From the NCBI RefSeq assembly GCF_053078305.1, contig NZ_CP166879.1: DNA of 64,000 nucleotides. The stretch is one strand, 5' to 3'. A program made the position numbers and the translations under genes. Of this stretch, positions 6,584 through 48,401 are shown piece by piece (the stretch's first letter is position 1; every line of letters starts with the position of its first letter). The notes under the pieces are model-generated. The model did no database searches, was not told where the DNA came from, and worked only from the letters and a program-made list of their open reading frames with translations.

Positions 6584-7894
6584 CTATGAGAATTTAAATG
6601 CGTCAGAAATATTCAACCGGGAAGCACGTAAAGCCGGTAACACAGAGGCGCCTGTTGCTGTCAAAATGGGTAATACCACCGTCACCCAAATCAATTCCGG
6701 GTTACTGGTTTTTATAAAGGCGGTATAGCCGATGGTTTGTCCCGGCGATGGCGGCATCGCAATACCATAAAGATTAATAATCCAGGCTAACACGCCCCCC
6801 ACCAGCAGGCTGCCGACTGCGCCAATCACACCAATAAAAATGCCTTCTGTCAGAAACAAGCGCGTGACGTGAAGCGGCTTCAGGCCTATGGCACGCAGAG
6901 TGGTAATTTCACGGGTGCGCTCAACAATGTTCATTGCCATCGAGTTGCCGATCATGAAGATGACAATCAGCGCAACAATCAGCTTGATGAAGAAATAGAT
7001 CCCCGATAGCAACCCTTCAACCTGTTGATAAAAGAGTGAAACATCACGCCAGTCTTTGACCACCAGCGGCAAATGATTGCGTTCGATAAATTGACGCAGC
7101 TTTGCGCTAAACGCCGCGGTGTCATCTTCTTTAAGCAGAATAAGCACTTTGCTGACGCCATCCGTACCCATCATGCGCTGCGCGGTGTCCAGCGGGATCT
7201 TCATCGCGACATCGTCATAATCTTTAATGCCTGACTCAAAAATGCCACGCAGTTTTAGCGACAATGCGCCCTGCCCGCCCGCCGTGTTGACCACCATCAC
7301 ATCCAGCCAGTCGTCGTATTTCGCATTCAACGTTTTCGCCAGGCCGCTGCCCAGGGTGATTTCATCACCTTTTACCCGGGAAAGGTCGCTCCCCGCGATA
7401 ATCTTATCGAACGATCCCAGCTTTAAAGCGGGCAATGGCTCGACACCCAGCGCAGAGAAATAGCTGGAGGTTTCGCTCTCGTAATGTGAAATTACGCCAG
7501 TAAACTCCAGTTGCCCGGAGAGCGTGGAAATATCCGTCGCCAGCGTCGGGTCCGACAAAATAGCTTTCTTTAACGCCGCATAATCGGCAATCAGGCTCTT
7601 ATTTTTATTCGACGTTTCAAAATAGTGCTGATTGTAAATCTGCACATGACCAATATTGGTACGAATCGTCTGCTCTTTCAGGATCCAGAAAGAGTAATCA
7701 ATAAATCCGCCATATAAAAAGATCGCCACACCACCCAATACAATAGCGGTTATGGTAGAAAAAGAGCGACGCTTGTGGCGAAAGAGATTCAAAAATGCAA
7801 ATTTGACATCTCGTGAATAAAACAGAACCTGATAAAACACAAAAAACAGGATCAGCAGCAGAACGCTATTAACAGCTAAAATTTCCCCGGACAT
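6584..7894 (-). CDS. ABC transporter permease, FtsX/MacB/LolC-like (436 aa)
   Basis: N-terminal TM helix, large periplasmic domain, C-terminal 3-TM FtsX-like domain (…IVERTREITTLRAIGLKP…). Confidence 0.7.
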   Translation of the reverse strand: MSGEILAVNSVLLLILFFVFYQVLFYSRDVKFAFLNLFRHKRRSFSTITAIVLGGVAIFLYGGFIDYSFWILKEQTIRTNIGHVQIYNQHYFETSNKNKSLIADYAALKKAILSDPTLATDISTLSGQLEFTGVISHYESETSSYFSALGVEPLPALKLGSFDKIIAGSDLSRVKGDEITLGSGLAKTLNAKYDDWLDVMVVNTAGGQGALSLKLRGIFESGIKDYDDVAMKIPLDTAQRMMGTDGVSKVLILLKEDDTAAFSAKLRQFIERNHLPLVVKDWRDVSLFYQQVEGLLSGIYFFIKLIVALIVIFMIGNSMAMNIVERTREITTLRAIGLKPLHVTRLFLTEGIFIGVIGAVGSLLVGGVLAWIINLYGIAMPPSPGQTIGYTAFIKTSNPELIWVTVVLPILTATGASVLPALRASRLNISDAFKFS

Positions 7895-9252: not shown

Positions 9253-10206
9253 TTATCCTTCAAGGTATTCAAGGTCAAAGTAGTGATAACCAAACTGTTT
9301 ATCAGCAATGACCGTACGCATTTTTCCACCGGGCTGAATATGACGGGTTAAATAATCCATACTCAACGCGGGCGTCAGACAACCGCTTTCACCGTAATGG
9401 GCCACCAGGTCGATAACGCCAGCAGCAGGCCGGGACGGCATTTGTTGCCGTTCGCTGAAGGCCATGACATCAATATCCGTAGCATGCTGTGGCGCAGTGC
9501 CGGAATGATATTCCCCGCATTGCAGCCTGATGGCGCTCTCACGCTGGCTGAGAATAAAACAACCCACGCGTTCAACAGATAAATTCACCTCATCAGCGCG
9601 ACGGGGGAATAAACGCTTAGGCGGTTTACCCACATCCTCTTCAGAGAATACCAGTACCGGAATTGCCCGATAGGCAGCGCAAATCACCACGTTATCGAAT
9701 ACATCCCAGGCGAGATAATCCTGCGCCATACGCAGCGCCTGAACGAATGCCTGTTTTTCGCCGCGAATCTTGCAAGTCGGTTCCGTTATCGAAAACTTCT
9801 TAAGTAAATTCTTGGGAAGCGTATCAATAGTGGCGATATGCAGCGCACTGGAAATTTTTTCAAACGAACCGGATTCGCCCCAGGAATCGGCATAAATAAA
9901 TGCCGTGCGCGATTTCATTAACTTCATGCGCTCTTTAGTCGGCATTTGTTGTAATGCAGAATCGGTTACCTGCTCCATCGCCTCAAGGTAAGGCATATAT
10001 TGTGGATTACGGATCCGTTCCGGCGCATAAATATCGTTCTCAACGCCAAAGCGCTTCAGCCCCCAGCCATTAGCACGGGTGCCGTATAATCCCCTTTCGT
10101 ACATATGTGCTTCCCAGGCGTTGAGCCAGGTCGGCTGATAAAAATAAAAAATGTCGTCCGGTTCCGTAAGCGCCCAGGAAGACAGGTAGATACTCTTTTC
10201 CGTCAT
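9253..10206 (-). CDS. Hypothetical protein (317 aa) within the lipid biosynthesis cluster
   Basis: ORF tightly packed between the KS-like gene and the ABC ATPase gene; no motif I can assign confidently. Confidence 0.4.
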   Translation of the reverse strand: MTEKSIYLSSWALTEPDDIFYFYQPTWLNAWEAHMYERGLYGTRANGWGLKRFGVENDIYAPERIRNPQYMPYLEAMEQVTDSALQQMPTKERMKLMKSRTAFIYADSWGESGSFEKISSALHIATIDTLPKNLLKKFSITEPTCKIRGEKQAFVQALRMAQDYLAWDVFDNVVICAAYRAIPVLVFSEEDVGKPPKRLFPRRADEVNLSVERVGCFILSQRESAIRLQCGEYHSGTAPQHATDIDVMAFSERQQMPSRPAAGVIDLVAHYGESGCLTPALSMDYLTRHIQPGGKMRTVIADKQFGYHYFDLEYLEG

Positions 10207-33833: not shown

Positions 33834-35444
33834 TTATCTGTTTACATACCATTGATAAAACTCTGTCGCTTTCATTGGTTTTGCATATAAGTATCCCTGA
33901 ACTAATGTCACGTTATTATGAATAAGATATTCCGCCTGGTGAGGAGTACTGACACCTTCTGCAATCGTTATCAAATTGAGTCGATTACTCAGCTTAATAA
34001 TAATATCTAAAACTGGCGTTTCGTCTTCCGCTGTAGTGAGTGTGTCTATAAAGCTTTTATCTATTTTAAGATAATCAACAGACAACTTTTGCAGAAGGCC
34101 AAGGGAACAATATCCCGTGCCAAAATCATCAACTGCAAATTCACAGCCATGGATCCTTAATTCATTTATTTTCTGTAATGCAAGATCAGTATCTTCAACC
34201 AGATTGCGTTCGGTAATCTCAAGAACAATGTTAAATTTATCAGATATTTCATTTTTAATATGTAAAACATCAGCAACAAAATCAGGATGTGCAAGATGCT
34301 CCGCGGCAATATTTATCCCAAGGTGAAACGGCTTTTTCACTTTCCAGCTTTGTACATCCTGAATAATCAGTTCAAAGAGATGCTTAGTTAACGGTATAAT
34401 TAAATTTTCCTCTTCTGCAGCGCGGATAAAAACTACCGGAGATATATTTTTACCATCTTCGCGTTGCCAACGCATTAACGCCTCAACCCCCAGACACGCT
34501 TTGGTTGTCGTGTCACATACTGGTTGATAATGCACAGAAAATTCTCCGGATGACATTCCTTTCTTAATTTCTTCTGCCAGGGACATTTTCCGAGATATCC
34601 AGCGCTGCCATAAGAAGTACAGAATAAAAGAAAGAAGAATAGATAATGGAAGAATGTAAAATACATTACTAATGACATAGGGATATAATGAAATCATCGG
34701 CGTAGTAACTGTAAGACTAGCCTGACTGATCGCAGAATTAAAATCTTTTTTTAACATATATAACTTGTCATTATTATTTACACCACTAATAATTGCAGGC
34801 CCTTCAGTAAAGCTAAGAGAAAATGAATCATCATTCTCATCATCAAGAACATCCATCAGATCATAGATATATCGTGACTCTACAATACTAAAAGCTGTCA
34901 TATCATTCCCTATTGGCATAAGGAACACTATGGCTGTTTTACCTGGTACAAAACTTGTACCGCTAATTGATACTATGCGTGATTCTTTATTTTTATTGTG
35001 AAAGCTCGTACCGTAAACATCGTTAACATTCATTTTTTTGAAACCGCTAACTGAAGAACATATTTGGAAATTATTTTCTATAAGCCCCGTTGTTCGAACA
35101 TAGGGGGTCAATGCTCCGTTAGCAATCAATTGTTCCAGGATATCTTTGCAGGGTTTCATCACCAGAATAGAAGTAAGCTTTGTCGTATGTTTTACAATTT
35201 GCGTAACATTATCAAGCTGTTTTAACAGAATACCGGCGGTAATTGTCGTATCTCGATTCATTTGAAATACTGACATAGCAAACGACAGTAACACCCCCAG
35301 AATGCCTGGTATTATAATGAGTACAAACATTTTTTTGTTGAATACCATACATGTTTCCCCACGCATCAGGGTGATGCAACCTAAGAAATTATAGTACAAT
35401 TGCCAGTAAAAGCGGGTGATAGCAGACTGATCAATGATAAGCAT
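33834..35444 (-). CDS. Membrane-bound EAL-domain c-di-GMP phosphodiesterase with periplasmic sensor domain (up to 536 aa; start possibly at 35348)
   Basis: Two TM segments flanking a periplasmic domain; cytoplasmic EAL domain with EALMRWQ and downstream DDFGTGYCSL motifs. Gene symbol left blank because equivalence to the O157 vmpA gene is only from memory. Confidence 0.75.
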   Translation of the reverse strand: MLIIDQSAITRFYWQLYYNFLGCITLMRGETCMVFNKKMFVLIIIPGILGVLLSFAMSVFQMNRDTTITAGILLKQLDNVTQIVKHTTKLTSILVMKPCKDILEQLIANGALTPYVRTTGLIENNFQICSSVSGFKKMNVNDVYGTSFHNKNKESRIVSISGTSFVPGKTAIVFLMPIGNDMTAFSIVESRYIYDLMDVLDDENDDSFSLSFTEGPAIISGVNNNDKLYMLKKDFNSAISQASLTVTTPMISLYPYVISNVFYILPLSILLSFILYFLWQRWISRKMSLAEEIKKGMSSGEFSVHYQPVCDTTTKACLGVEALMRWQREDGKNISPVVFIRAAEEENLIIPLTKHLFELIIQDVQSWKVKKPFHLGINIAAEHLAHPDFVADVLHIKNEISDKFNIVLEITERNLVEDTDLALQKINELRIHGCEFAVDDFGTGYCSLGLLQKLSVDYLKIDKSFIDTLTTAEDETPVLDIIIKLSNRLNLITIAEGVSTPHQAEYLIHNNVTLVQGYLYAKPMKATEFYQWYVNR

Positions 35445-43722: not shown

Positions 43723-44787
43723 TTAACTGTATGCATGCAGCGTACGTTGGCAAAGTGCCGAACGTACGCAATCCTCTTTACCGAACCGGACGATCCCGAC
43801 CATTTCATCTTCTTCGAAACGTTCCAGCGCGTCACTTAATCCGGAGCACACGCCGCGAGGCAAATCGCATTGCGTGATATCACCGTTGACGATAACCGTC
43901 ACGTTCTCCCCGAGGCGGGTTAAAAACATTTTCATTTGCGCGGCAGTCACATTCTGCGCCTCGTCAAGAATGACGACTGCATTTTCAAAGGTACGTCCAC
44001 GCATATAGGCGAACGGCGCAATTTCCACCTTCCCTATTTCCGGTCGCAGGCAGTACTGCATAAAGGAAGCCCCTAAGCGCCGGACCAGCACGTCGTAGAC
44101 CGGGCGAAAATAGGGAGCAAACTTTTCTGCGATATCTCCAGGTAAGAAGCCAAGATCTTCATCGGCTTGCAGAACTGGACGGGTGACGATAATCCTGTCG
44201 ACATCCTTATGTATCAGGGCCTCTGCCGCTTTTGCTGCGCTGATCCAGGTTTTTCCGCACCCGGCTTCGCCCGTGGCGAATATCAGCTGCTTACTCTCAA
44301 TAGCCTTCAGATAGTGCAATTGCGCTTCATTTCGCGCGAGGATGGGCGAGGTATCGCGACTGTCGCGGGCCATACCAATGGCTTCTACGCCGCTCATCTG
44401 CACAAGCGAGGTGACCGATTCTTCTTCACGCTGCTTATGGCTGCGCGAATCCCGTCTCAGCACACGTTTTGCCTCGCGACGAGCTTTGATCACTGCTTTT
44501 TGTCTTCCCATGGAGAGCACCTTGAGTTGTTTGTATTCATCACACGCGCCGTTGGCAGCGCGATTATGCGCACGAACATCAGAGGGTTGGCTTCCTTGTA
44601 AGCCATAGTTTGCTTTTGGATAAAATGCCGAAAAACGGCTACGCGCACCGTTTACGGCGTCGGTAACACATGAAAAGAAAGGATGAGGTTGAAAATGCAA
44701 AGTGACGAGATGACTACCGGAGGAGAAAACTCCGCGAGTGGTGGCGCGTTGATTATCTAAAACATGTCCAGTACAGGACGTTACCAT
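43723..44787 (-). CDS. phoH: PhoH, phosphate-starvation-inducible ATPase (354 aa)
   Basis: Walker A GEAGCGKT, PhoH-family core; synteny between pga and efe operons. Confidence 0.85.
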   Translation of the reverse strand: MVTSCTGHVLDNQRATTRGVFSSGSHLVTLHFQPHPFFSCVTDAVNGARSRFSAFYPKANYGLQGSQPSDVRAHNRAANGACDEYKQLKVLSMGRQKAVIKARREAKRVLRRDSRSHKQREEESVTSLVQMSGVEAIGMARDSRDTSPILARNEAQLHYLKAIESKQLIFATGEAGCGKTWISAAKAAEALIHKDVDRIIVTRPVLQADEDLGFLPGDIAEKFAPYFRPVYDVLVRRLGASFMQYCLRPEIGKVEIAPFAYMRGRTFENAVVILDEAQNVTAAQMKMFLTRLGENVTVIVNGDITQCDLPRGVCSGLSDALERFEEDEMVGIVRFGKEDCVRSALCQRTLHAYS

Positions 44788-45031: not shown

Positions 45032-46303
45032 TTAAACCCGCAATAATGCGCTTCCGAGATAATCGTTCGCGTCCTTCACTCCCGGCAGCGCAAAAAAATA
45101 GCCGCCGCCGATAGGTTTAACGTATTCCTCCAGCGCTTCGCCATTGAGCCTTTTTTGTACTGTCAGGAAGCCTTTTTCCAGATCGTGCTGGTAGCAGACA
45201 AACAGTAGCCCCATATCCAGTTGTCCGGAGTTGGTGACGCCCAGTGAATAACTGTAGCCACGACGCAGCATCAGGCTGGACTCACTCTCCGCCGTGCGGG
45301 GATTCGCCAGCCGGATATGGCTGTCCAGCGCGATCACCTTCCCTTCCGGGTCGCTGGCGTAATCAGGCACATCATGCTCATGCTGCATTCCCAGCGGCGC
45401 ACCGGTTTGCTTATCACGGCCAAAAATCGTCTGCTGTTCTTTCAGCGGCGTTCTGTCCCAAAATTCCACTCGAAACTGAATCAAGCGTACTGCCTGATAG
45501 CTGCCACCGATTGTCCACGCAGGCTCCTGCTGATCTGCCGTTACCCACACCACTTTTTGCATCAACTTATCATTCTGGCTATCGGGATTGGCTGTGCCGT
45601 CTTTGAAACCCAGCAAATTAATCGGCGTCTCTTTGCCTTTACTACGCGCTGCGTGATCGGAAATAAACCCTTCCCGCTTCCAGCGCACACTGAGCAAATC
45701 CGGCGTGTGTTTGATGATATCGCGCAGTGCATGGATCACCGTGTCCTGGGTGTTGGCGCAAATCTGTAGCAACACATCACCATGACATAACGCCGTATCC
45801 AGCGAGTCGTTGGGGAAACGCGTCATCTTCTGCAGCTTTTTTGGCATCTGTGGCGCAAGGCCAAAGCGCTCATCAAACAATGAGTGACCCACCGATAACG
45901 TGATGGTGAGATTATCGGGCGCAATGTAGCCGCCAAGAATGCCGGAATCGAGTGGTGGCAGGCGCGGATTTGGCGTTTCTGGTGCTGCTCCGCCCTGAGT
46001 CAGAAAAGCAAAACGCTGAGTCAACAAGCGAAACAACCGCTCAAGATCGGCTTTATCGCTGGCAAGCACATCAAACGCCACCAGCATCATTGCGGCCTGT
46101 TGTGGCGTCAGGATCCCTGCCTGATGCTCACCATAAAACGGCTGTTTCTCATTGCGTGCATCCGGTGAAAGCGTGCCCGGTGCACTTTGCGTTTTTTGTG
46201 CATGAGCGACCGGACAACTTCCCGCCAGCGCCAGCGCACCAATTCCTTTCAGTAAACGTCGGCGTGACAGTTCATTCACGCCGTTTTCATCTTCATACTG
46301 CAT
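45032..46303 (-). CDS. efeB: Dye-decolorizing-type heme peroxidase EfeB (423 aa, Tat signal)
   Basis: Twin-arginine signal (SRRRLLKG), DyP-family core; synteny. Confidence 0.85.
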
Positions 46304-46308
46304 AACGC

Positions 46309-47436
46309 TTAATCCAGTCCCAGCACACCGCGAAGTTGCGCCAGATCTTCCGCCAGCGCAGTAATCGGCCCTTTCAGCGCGTTCCGGTCGGCCTCGGTCA
46401 ATTTGTCGTAGGTTTCAAAACCGTCTTTAGTACGGTATTTCGCCAGAATGGTATCGACCTTTTTAAAGTTGGCATCGACTTTTGCCAGCAGTTCCGGGTT
46501 GGCTTTTTGCAGTTGTGGACGCAGCAGATCGACAATTTTCTGCGAGCCTTCAACGTTAGCCTGGAAATCCCACAGATCGGTGTGGCTGTAGCGATCTTCT
46601 TCACCGCTGATTTTGCTGGCCGCCACTTCCTCAATCAGTCCGGCTGCACCGCCAACCACTTTTGAAGGTGGGAAAGCCAGTTCACTGATGCGTTTTTGTA
46701 AATCGACCACATCGGTATAAAGCTGCTCAGCGTACTGATCCATTCCTTTGGTGGTGTTGTCGCCAAACAATGCTTTTTCCAGACGGTGGAAACCGGTGAA
46801 TTTTGGATCAGCGGCTTTTTGCTCGTAATCATCTTCACGGGCGTCAATGCTGCCATCCAGATCGGAGAACAGTTCAGCAATCGGTTCAATGCGCTCATAG
46901 TGCTGGCGCGTCGGCGCATACAGTGCTTTCGCTTTTTCGATATCGCCTGCTTTAATCGCGTCGGTAAAGGCTTTGGTGTCGGTCACCAGCTGTGTGGTTT
47001 CCGCCATGACATACGCTTTATATGCAGTAATTGCACCACCAAGACTTAACAGCGCATCACTTTGCGCCGCATCCGCCGTTGCCTCACCTTTGACAATCAA
47101 CTTCCCTTTCGGGTTAGTCAGCAGACCGCAGGTCATATCGTATTCGCCAGGCTGTAAATTCGCCGTCATTTTCTGGCTAAAACCAGGGGCGATATTTTCC
47201 CGCTCTTCCACCACCATCACGCCTTTGAGGATCTCCCACTCCAGCGCCTTCTGGCTATGGTTCTGAATAATGAACTGTGTTTTCCCGGCGTTAACCGTAA
47301 TGGTCATCGGTTCGCACTGTTTATCCGTCACGGTCACTTTGACTTGCGGAATATCAGCGGCGTTAGCCATAAAAGCAGAAGAGAACAGCGCAGCCACGCT
47401 CAACTGCAATGCGTTACGGCGGAAGTTAATGGTCAT
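46309..47436 (-). CDS. efeO: Periplasmic iron-binding protein EfeO (375 aa; ORF track extends 13 codons upstream)
   Basis: Signal peptide, cupredoxin-like N-terminal and M75 peptidase-like C-terminal regions; matches recalled EfeO. Confidence 0.85.
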
Positions 47437-47493
47437 GACGAGACTATCCCTTTTAAGTATGTTGTAACTAAGCAAGAGTTTGCGTCGTATTTG

Positions 47494-48324
47494 CTACGCG
47501 GAGCGAGACGCTGTCGCCCCTGCACGTGGTGGCAGAGCAAACGCCACCAGCGCCGGGATGAGATAAATAAACCAGACGGCGACTTCGCTGACGCTCGGCG
47601 CTTCCTGATAACCAAAAATACCTTCCATTAGCGTGCCGAACAGCGAGTGAGTTGAGAGCACCGCGCTCATATCAAAGGCGATTTCCTGAAAGTGGTTCCA
47701 CAATCCGGCTTCATGAAATGCGCGAATGGCACCTGCAGCCAGCCCTGCGGCGACGAAGAGAATAAACAGGCTGGTCCATTTAAAAAATGCACCAAGATTG
47801 AGGCGAATACCGCCCCAGTAGAGCAGGAAGCCGAGCACCACGGCAGTAGCAAGACCGAGCATTGCACCCAGCGGCGGCCAGATCCCGACATCTTGTTGAA
47901 ATGCCGCCAGCAGGAAAAATACCGACTCCAGCCCTTCCCTTGCAACGGCAAAAAAGACCATCATCACCAGCGCCCAGCCATGATGATTTCCACGCTGCAA
48001 TGCGCTATCGACCGCCTGCTCCAGTTGCACTTTGACGTTGCGCGACACTTTGCGCATCCAGAAAACCATCCAGGTAAGGATCACCACGGCGATCACCGCC
48101 ACGATACCTTCAAACAGTTCCTGTTCTTTTTGCGGAAATTCGCCGGTGGTTTCGTTAATGAAGATACCCAAGCCCAGGCACAACGCAGCGGCAAACAACA
48201 CGCCAATCCACATCACACCAATCCATCGGCCTCGCTGGGTACGCTTAAGATAGCTGGCAATCAAACTGACAATCAGCGCGGCTTCAAGCCCTTCGCGCAA
48301 CATAATGAGAAATGGAACAAACAT
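47494..48324 (-). CDS. efeU: Ferrous iron permease EfeU (276 aa), apparently intact
   Basis: FTR1-family permease with two REGLE motifs (MLREGLEAAL, AVAREGLESVF) in one uninterrupted frame. Confidence 0.85.
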   Translation of the reverse strand: MFVPFLIMLREGLEAALIVSLIASYLKRTQRGRWIGVMWIGVLFAAALCLGLGIFINETTGEFPQKEQELFEGIVAVIAVVILTWMVFWMRKVSRNVKVQLEQAVDSALQRGNHHGWALVMMVFFAVAREGLESVFFLLAAFQQDVGIWPPLGAMLGLATAVVLGFLLYWGGIRLNLGAFFKWTSLFILFVAAGLAAGAIRAFHEAGLWNHFQEIAFDMSAVLSTHSLFGTLMEGIFGYQEAPSVSEVAVWFIYLIPALVAFALPPRAGATASRSA

Positions 48325-48383
48325 GCCACCCACCCTTAAACGTTTTTCTGAGTCAATCTATGCAAAGAAAAGTAAATCGCAGT

Positions 48384-48401
48384 GATAGCGATTATCATTA
48401 C
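48384..48401. promoter_or_regulatory. Candidate Fur box upstream of efeU (GATAGCGATTATCATTAC)
   Basis: Resembles Fur consensus GATAATGATAATCATTATC; lies 60-77 bp upstream of the efeU start codon. Confidence 0.5.

Follow-up and report, generated by a model that had tools for sequence, protein, structure and literature searches.

The window, a stretch of 64,000 nucleotides (nt) from contig NZ_CP166879.1 of the RefSeq assembly GCF_053078305.1, carries, judged by its sequence, the efeUOB locus of an E. coli strain. The three genes lie on the minus strand and form a tripartite operon, in which efeU is followed by full-length efeO and efeB with intergenic gaps of 57 nt (efeU-efeO) and 5 nt (efeO-efeB). 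Its neighbours on the two sides are phoH and putP/putA, an arrangement also seen in E. coli K-12. The genes and features at the locus are the following.

45032–46303, minus strand: efeB, 423 amino acids (aa), Tat-exported DyP-type haem peroxidase/deferrochelatase (TIGR01412, PDB, motifs)
46309–47436, minus strand: efeO, 375 aa, periplasmic cupredoxin and imelysin (M75) protein with a signal peptide (Pfam, NCBIfam, PDB)
47494–48324, minus strand: efeU, 276 codons plus stop, Ftr1-type inner-membrane iron permease (translation, family models)
47926–47940, minus strand: REGLE (REXXE) motif 2, inside hydrophobic segment 4 (residues 119–137)
48218–48219, minus strand: GG of codon 36 (GGT, 48219–48217), of which one G is gone in K-12 and both are present here (alignment)
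48283–48297, minus strand: REGLE (REXXE) motif 1, inside hydrophobic segment 1 (residues 5–23)
48325–48458, minus strand: regulatory region common to E. coli; similarity to most genomes stops about 94–125 nt past 48334
48330–48335, minus strand: likely ribosome-binding site GGGTGG, 5 nt before the ATG (read from the sequence)
48362–48376, plus strand: CpxR-like tandem pentamer GCAAAGAAAAGTAAA, one mismatch to GTAAA-N5-GTAAA (motif scan)
48384–48402, minus strand: candidate Fur box CGTAATGATAATCGCTATC, 19 nt
48391–48418, minus strand: putative promoter inferred by hand, TTGTAT (48418–48413), 16-nt spacer, GATAAT (48396–48391)

The initial annotation of this stretch had read efeU as a single open frame of 276 codons with two REGLE motifs, and both observations hold. 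On the minus strand, which that annotation had left unstated, the frame opens with the ATG at 48324, closes with the stop codon at 47496–47494 and covers 831 nt with no internal stop; the motifs occupy residues 10–14 and 129–133. A Kyte-Doolittle hydropathy scan, which is a crude method, resolved seven distinct hydrophobic segments; on this rough measure, the protein has the features of the EfeU/Ftr1 family, namely about seven transmembrane segments with REXXE motifs in helices 1 and 4. All three family models were matched over the full length and above their curated cut-offs: Pfam FTR1 (PF03239) over residues 1–275 with E=1.8e-89 and 300.3 bits (cut-off 25.3), the NCBIfam EfeU equivalog NF041756 with 330.5 bits (cut-off 255) and the subfamily model TIGR00145 with 349.9 bits (cut-off 303.8). 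An identical protein, WP_000497935.1, is named EfeU in RefSeq and occurs in strain A16. A GTG at 48333, three codons 5' of the ATG, lengthens the mechanically derived open reading frame (ORF) to 279 aa; the 276-aa form is the one annotated by RefSeq in the closest genomes, and GGGTGG is likely to be its ribosome-binding site. A sequence search of the PDB with EfeU found no relatives at E<=0.001, i.e. no solved EfeU/Ftr1 structure recognizable by sequence.

The two partner genes appear equally complete. Pfam and NCBIfam matches span residues 1–375 of the 375 residues of EfeO, the nearest solved structure of which is PDB 7wgu, deposited as 'EfeO' (E=1e-229). EfeB scored 617 bits against the equivalog model TIGR01412 and matched the PDB entries 3o72, 2y4f and 2y4d with E<1e-260; the twin-arginine motif SRRRLLKG and the catalytic residues D235, H329 and R347 are all present. 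Two positions of EfeB differ from the sequences compared: residue 12, directly before the twin-arginine motif, is Leu here and Pro in K-12, O157, EcPF18 and a published sequence from extraintestinal pathogenic E. coli (ExPEC), and residue 170 is Thr here and Ala in K-12, O157, A16 and EcPF18.

The contrast with K-12, on which the initial annotation had partly built its case for a functional EfeUOB system, was borne out with respect to the gene itself. The MG1655 copy of efeU (b4490) is listed as an 830-nt pseudogene that lacks one G. The alignment to K-12 efeU that had been proposed for locating this frameshift, performed with the window, MG1655, the O157 strain 180-PT54 and strain A16, placed the deletion in the GG of codon 36, of which K-12 retains a single G. 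This was the only insertion or deletion across the aligned genes; a frameshift that might have escaped notice in the efeU of the window was thus searched for by comparison with MG1655, O157 and A16, and none was present. As a consequence of the missing base, the K-12 protein reads R33, W34, I35, V36 and then runs into a stop at codon 37, leaving 36 residues. In the window, O157, A16, EcPF18, YZ22PE165 and N10, the frame stays open up to codon 277, and the single-G deletion in codon 36 that defines the cryptic pseudogene of the K-12 type is absent from the window.

What did not stand is the notion that an intact gene sets this strain apart, as it is K-12 that is atypical. The gene was found in 5,417 of 5,426 complete E. 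coli genomes, and the state of the deletion site was counted with short queries centred on it, for which each 28-base seed was forced to span the site. The 41-mer of the K-12 deletion junction was matched in 367 of the 5,426 genomes, and the strains listed for it are mostly K-12 laboratory derivatives (MG1655, W3110, BW25113, DH1, HB101, MC4100, NEB10-beta). The undeleted 42-mer as it occurs in the window was found in 3,928 genomes and its variant with the synonymous exchange GTG→GTA at V37, as in EcPF18, in another 1,024, so that at least 4,952 genomes (91%) have an undeleted site. About 98 genomes fell outside all three queries, presumably owing to other single-nucleotide polymorphisms within the 42-mer. 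An intact efeU is therefore the norm in E. coli, and the frameshift is peculiar to the K-12 lineage.

Over the efeU region (47400–48520), the nearest genome is that of strain A16, isolated from otter faeces in Mexico, with 99.7% identity; most other E. coli genomes show approximately 97.4–97.8%. Only 9 of 5,417 genomes reach an identity of at least 99% over this region, and therefore the window belongs to an E. coli lineage that has been sampled sparsely. We considered whether this rarity marks an efeU feature special to the lineage and rejected the idea, since what differs are synonymous or conservative polymorphisms of an ordinary kind. Plasmid records hold 7 of the 5,419 places that match the efeU region.

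A Fur-like box had been noted 60–77 nt upstream of the efeU ATG, and it is indeed located there, reading GATAGCGATTATCATTAC on the plus strand at 48384–48401. In the direction of efeU (48402 to 48384), the 19-nt sequence CGTAATGATAATCGCTATC shares 15 of 19 positions with the Fur consensus GATAATGATAATCATTATC, and its core TGATAATCGCTATCA shares 12 of 14 with the 7-1-7 motif TGATAATNATTATCA. Across both strands of the 64-kb window, this is the top match to the 19-bp consensus, the runners-up having five mismatches, and also the top match to the 7-1-7 motif. Simulation with a first-order Markov model of the same composition yielded approximately 0.33 chance matches of this quality per 64 kb, with at least one in 20% of the simulated windows. 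Taken alone, the match would thus be only suggestive. The expectation within one given upstream region of about 200 bp is approximately 0.001, however, and the match becomes convincing through its position, as the iron transporter gene efeU starts within about 200 nt downstream of it.

Conservation points in the same direction. An 18-nt part of the box, GTAATGATAATCGCTATC (18 of the 19 positions), is invariant in six divergent E. coli strains including K-12 and O157:H7, and the stretch from GTAATG to the ATG is identical in all six except for one base in EcPF18. From the Fur box down to the ATG, over approximately 80 nt, the window does not differ from K-12 and O157:H7. Beyond about 95–135 nt upstream of the ATG, the sequences of the six strains become variable or unrelated. 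The upstream region hence has two of the features expected of a Fur-repressed promoter, a 19-bp box that resembles the consensus and its conservation among orthologous promoters. This is in line with published work: EfeUOB of O157:H7 and Nissle is described as Fur-regulated in reviews, a Fur pan-regulon study of nine E. coli strains assigns efeU and efeO to a Fur-2 iModulon, i.e. a set of co-regulated genes, and a Fur box upstream of efeU was detected computationally in an ExPEC strain, for which CpxR is listed as a second regulator.

A sigma-70 promoter consisting of TTGTAT and GATAAT separated by 16 nt is plausible, which would place the -10 hexamer within the Fur box. A consensus sigma-70 scan of 48250–49550 did not return it, nor any other promoter at the box; its -35 hexamer agrees with the consensus at just three of six positions, which is why the scan passed over it. 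Between the box and the efeU ATG lies the CpxR-like pentamer pair GCAAAGAAAAGTAAA, which may be a CpxR site of efeU; negative regulation of this gene by CpxR is on record. Only four sites with one mismatch to GTAAA-N5-GTAAA occur in the window, one of them in the efeU leader; at up to two mismatches, the motif is barely enriched (85 matches versus 67 expected). The Fur box is also overlapped, on the minus strand, by the inverted repeat AATCGC-N7-GCGATT with a T-rich run behind it (48375–48393). In the scan of 48250–49550, one terminator-like hairpin was flagged at the box, which does not exceed the chance rate, and an Rfam search returned nothing in or near the efeU leader.

Approximately 135 nt upstream of the efeU ATG begins a 2.1-kb insertion that separates the efeU promoter from putP (48459–50996). 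In the window, putP and efeU are about 2.7 kb apart, as against 542 bp in K-12 and 220 bp in EcPF18, and the insertion occurs in 643 of the 5,426 E. coli genomes (~12%), including O157:H7 EDL933. It is AT-rich, with a spacer of 36% GC (48335–49504), and holds an ORF of 447 aa on the plus strand (49505–50848) with three repeats of about 55 aa in its C-terminal half, which RefSeq lists as 'hypothetical protein'. No Pfam, NCBIfam or PDB match was obtained for this ORF, and the only matches to PHROG families were weak and concerned families of unknown function (phrog_11707, E=1e-18). That the insertion alters the regulation of efeUOB in the lineages that have it, for example through silencing by nucleoid proteins or read-in transcription, or that it belongs itself to an iron or acid response, appears to us very improbable.

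Compared with known systems, the locus is closest to EfeUOB of O157:H7, which has the same position between putP and phoH, the same three genes, the same 2.1-kb upstream insertion and the same sequence from the Fur box to the ATG. EfeU is identical at 275 of 276 residues, with L44F as the sole change, EfeO at 372 of 375 (I29, E237 and E348 differ) and EfeB at 418 of 423 (E6, L12, D48, T170 and V323 differ). The K-12 pseudogene b4490 is orthologous; its promoter and Fur box are identical to those of the window and efeO and efeB are intact in both, the difference residing in the G missing from codon 36, with which the K-12 protein ends after 36 residues. Ftr1p/Fet3p of Saccharomyces cerevisiae resembles the system in the FTR1 family membership of its permease, the two REXXE motifs found in EfeU and the coupling of an oxidase to a permease, but the yeast partner is a multicopper oxidase, in place of the cupredoxin/M75 protein and the DyP peroxidase of the bacterial system. 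EfeUOB of Bacillus subtilis (YwbLMN) and FtrABCD of Bordetella and Brucella likewise handle ferrous iron with a permease of the Ftr1 type and partner proteins that are periplasmic or extracytoplasmic; these are distant orthologues with other accessory proteins and regulation, and the comparison here is by description.

Taken together, the locus is very probably the canonical intact efeUOB (ycdNOB) operon of non-K-12 E. coli, functional and Fur-repressed as in O157:H7. The literature describes the operon as cryptic in K-12, where efeU is frameshifted, and as functional in two other strains, O157:H7 (Cao et al. 2007, Mol Microbiol 65:857, PubMed id 17627767) and Nissle 1917 (EfeU; Grosse et al. 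2006, Mol Microbiol 62:120). The systems of O157:H7 and Nissle are characterized as ferrous-iron transporters active at low pH. The proposal of a functional, iron-repressed EfeUOB made in the initial annotation is supported and coincides with the published state of the operon in non-K-12 E. coli; the intact operon and its Fur control are already known (Grosse et al. 2006; Cao et al. 2007), and there is no departure from published knowledge. Given the identity of 275 of 276 residues to EfeU of O157:H7 and the literature on that protein, we infer that the EfeU of the window transports Fe2+.

EfeU would act as a seven-helix permease, in which the REGLE motifs of helices 1 and 4 would bind iron and pass it on, with EfeO (cupredoxin and M75 domains) and the Tat-exported DyP haem peroxidase EfeB as probable periplasmic partners. 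According to the published oxidase-permease model, which is analogous to yeast Fet3p/Ftr1p, periplasmic Fe2+ would be oxidized and then handed as Fe3+ to EfeU; for B. subtilis, it is reported that EfeB oxidizes Fe2+ and that EfeO hands Fe3+ to EfeU. When iron is plentiful, Fe2+-Fur is expected to occupy the 19-bp box about 60–78 nt upstream of the ATG, over the likely -10 hexamer, and to block transcription, and CpxR may add repression of efeUOB at high pH. Both regulators would presumably bind in this strain as well. With Fur repression on the one hand and CpxR repression at high pH on the other, the operon should therefore be expressed in low-iron, acidic and aerobic conditions, and in this strain it would import iron under iron limitation, especially at low pH. 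Deletion of efeOB in one ExPEC strain is reported to have had no virulence phenotype, and the physiological importance of EfeUOB therefore seems to depend on the conditions.

Three other readings were weighed against this one. The main substrate may be something other than free Fe2+, either haem iron made accessible by EfeB acting as a deferrochelatase, in accordance with the name 'deferrochelatase/peroxidase' used by RefSeq and by the PDB depositors, or EfeO-bound Fe3+ as in B. subtilis, where EfeUOB is reported to import both ferrous and ferric iron and EfeB to be dispensable for ferric uptake. We consider this unlikely in view of the description of the O157:H7 and Nissle systems as low-pH ferrous-iron transporters, and it would touch the chemistry of a known system and not the identity of the locus. 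It is also conceivable that the operon looks intact and is nevertheless silent or non-functional, be it through L44F in EfeU, through P12L or T170 in EfeB or through silencing spreading out of the AT-rich insertion. Substitutions relative to O157, K-12 and EcPF18 do exist, the published ExPEC signal peptide of EfeB has Pro at position 12, and the spacer with 36% GC starts as close as about 135 nt upstream of the efeU ATG. However, each substitution is either conservative or located away from any known motif, the REGLE motifs as well as D235, H329 and R347 of EfeB are unbroken, strain A16 has the same EfeU and EfeO proteins, and O157:H7, whose system is reported to be functional, has the same insertion, all of which makes a silent operon very unlikely.

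The remaining reading concerns regulation and takes the Fur-like box for a chance match in AT-rich DNA, with the operon under pH control by CpxR alone. The four mismatches to the Fur consensus and the roughly one in five simulated 64-kb sequences that hold at least one such match would allow for it, but the box is the best in the window and lies 60–78 nt upstream of an iron transporter, a position for which the chance expectation is so low; it is invariant across divergent E. coli while its flanks vary, and Fur regulation of efeU/efeUOB has been published. An accidental box therefore strikes us as extremely improbable.

The canonical, Fur-repressed operon thus being the preferred reading, the strain, like ~91% or more of sequenced E. 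coli, would have a working form of the low-pH ferrous-iron importer that the K-12 reference lacks. The value of the result lies in correct annotation, as the efeU pseudogene of K-12 should not be carried over to other strains.

Apart from the efeUOB locus, a large accessory gene cluster (2194–36000) adjoins a tRNA gene (2194–2278). This cluster presumably resembles O-island 47 of O157:H7, and it contains the following genes.

6584–7894: FtsX/MacB-type permease
10203–13989: two beta-ketoacyl-synthase proteins
14063–15223: GCV_T-family protein
17273–18892: TpsB/ShlB of a two-partner secretion pair
18981–20645 and 20703–22793: TpsA filamentous haemagglutinin in two ORFs, the former with haemagglutinin repeats and the latter with the TPS domain
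33834–35444: CSS-motif EAL protein

The split TpsA haemagglutinin may be a pseudogene. On the plus strand at 43728–43921, the Rfam family Ysr251 (Yersinia sRNA 251, antisense type) was matched with 189 bits against a gathering score of 100, and this match lies antisense to the 3' end of phoH (43723–44787, minus strand).
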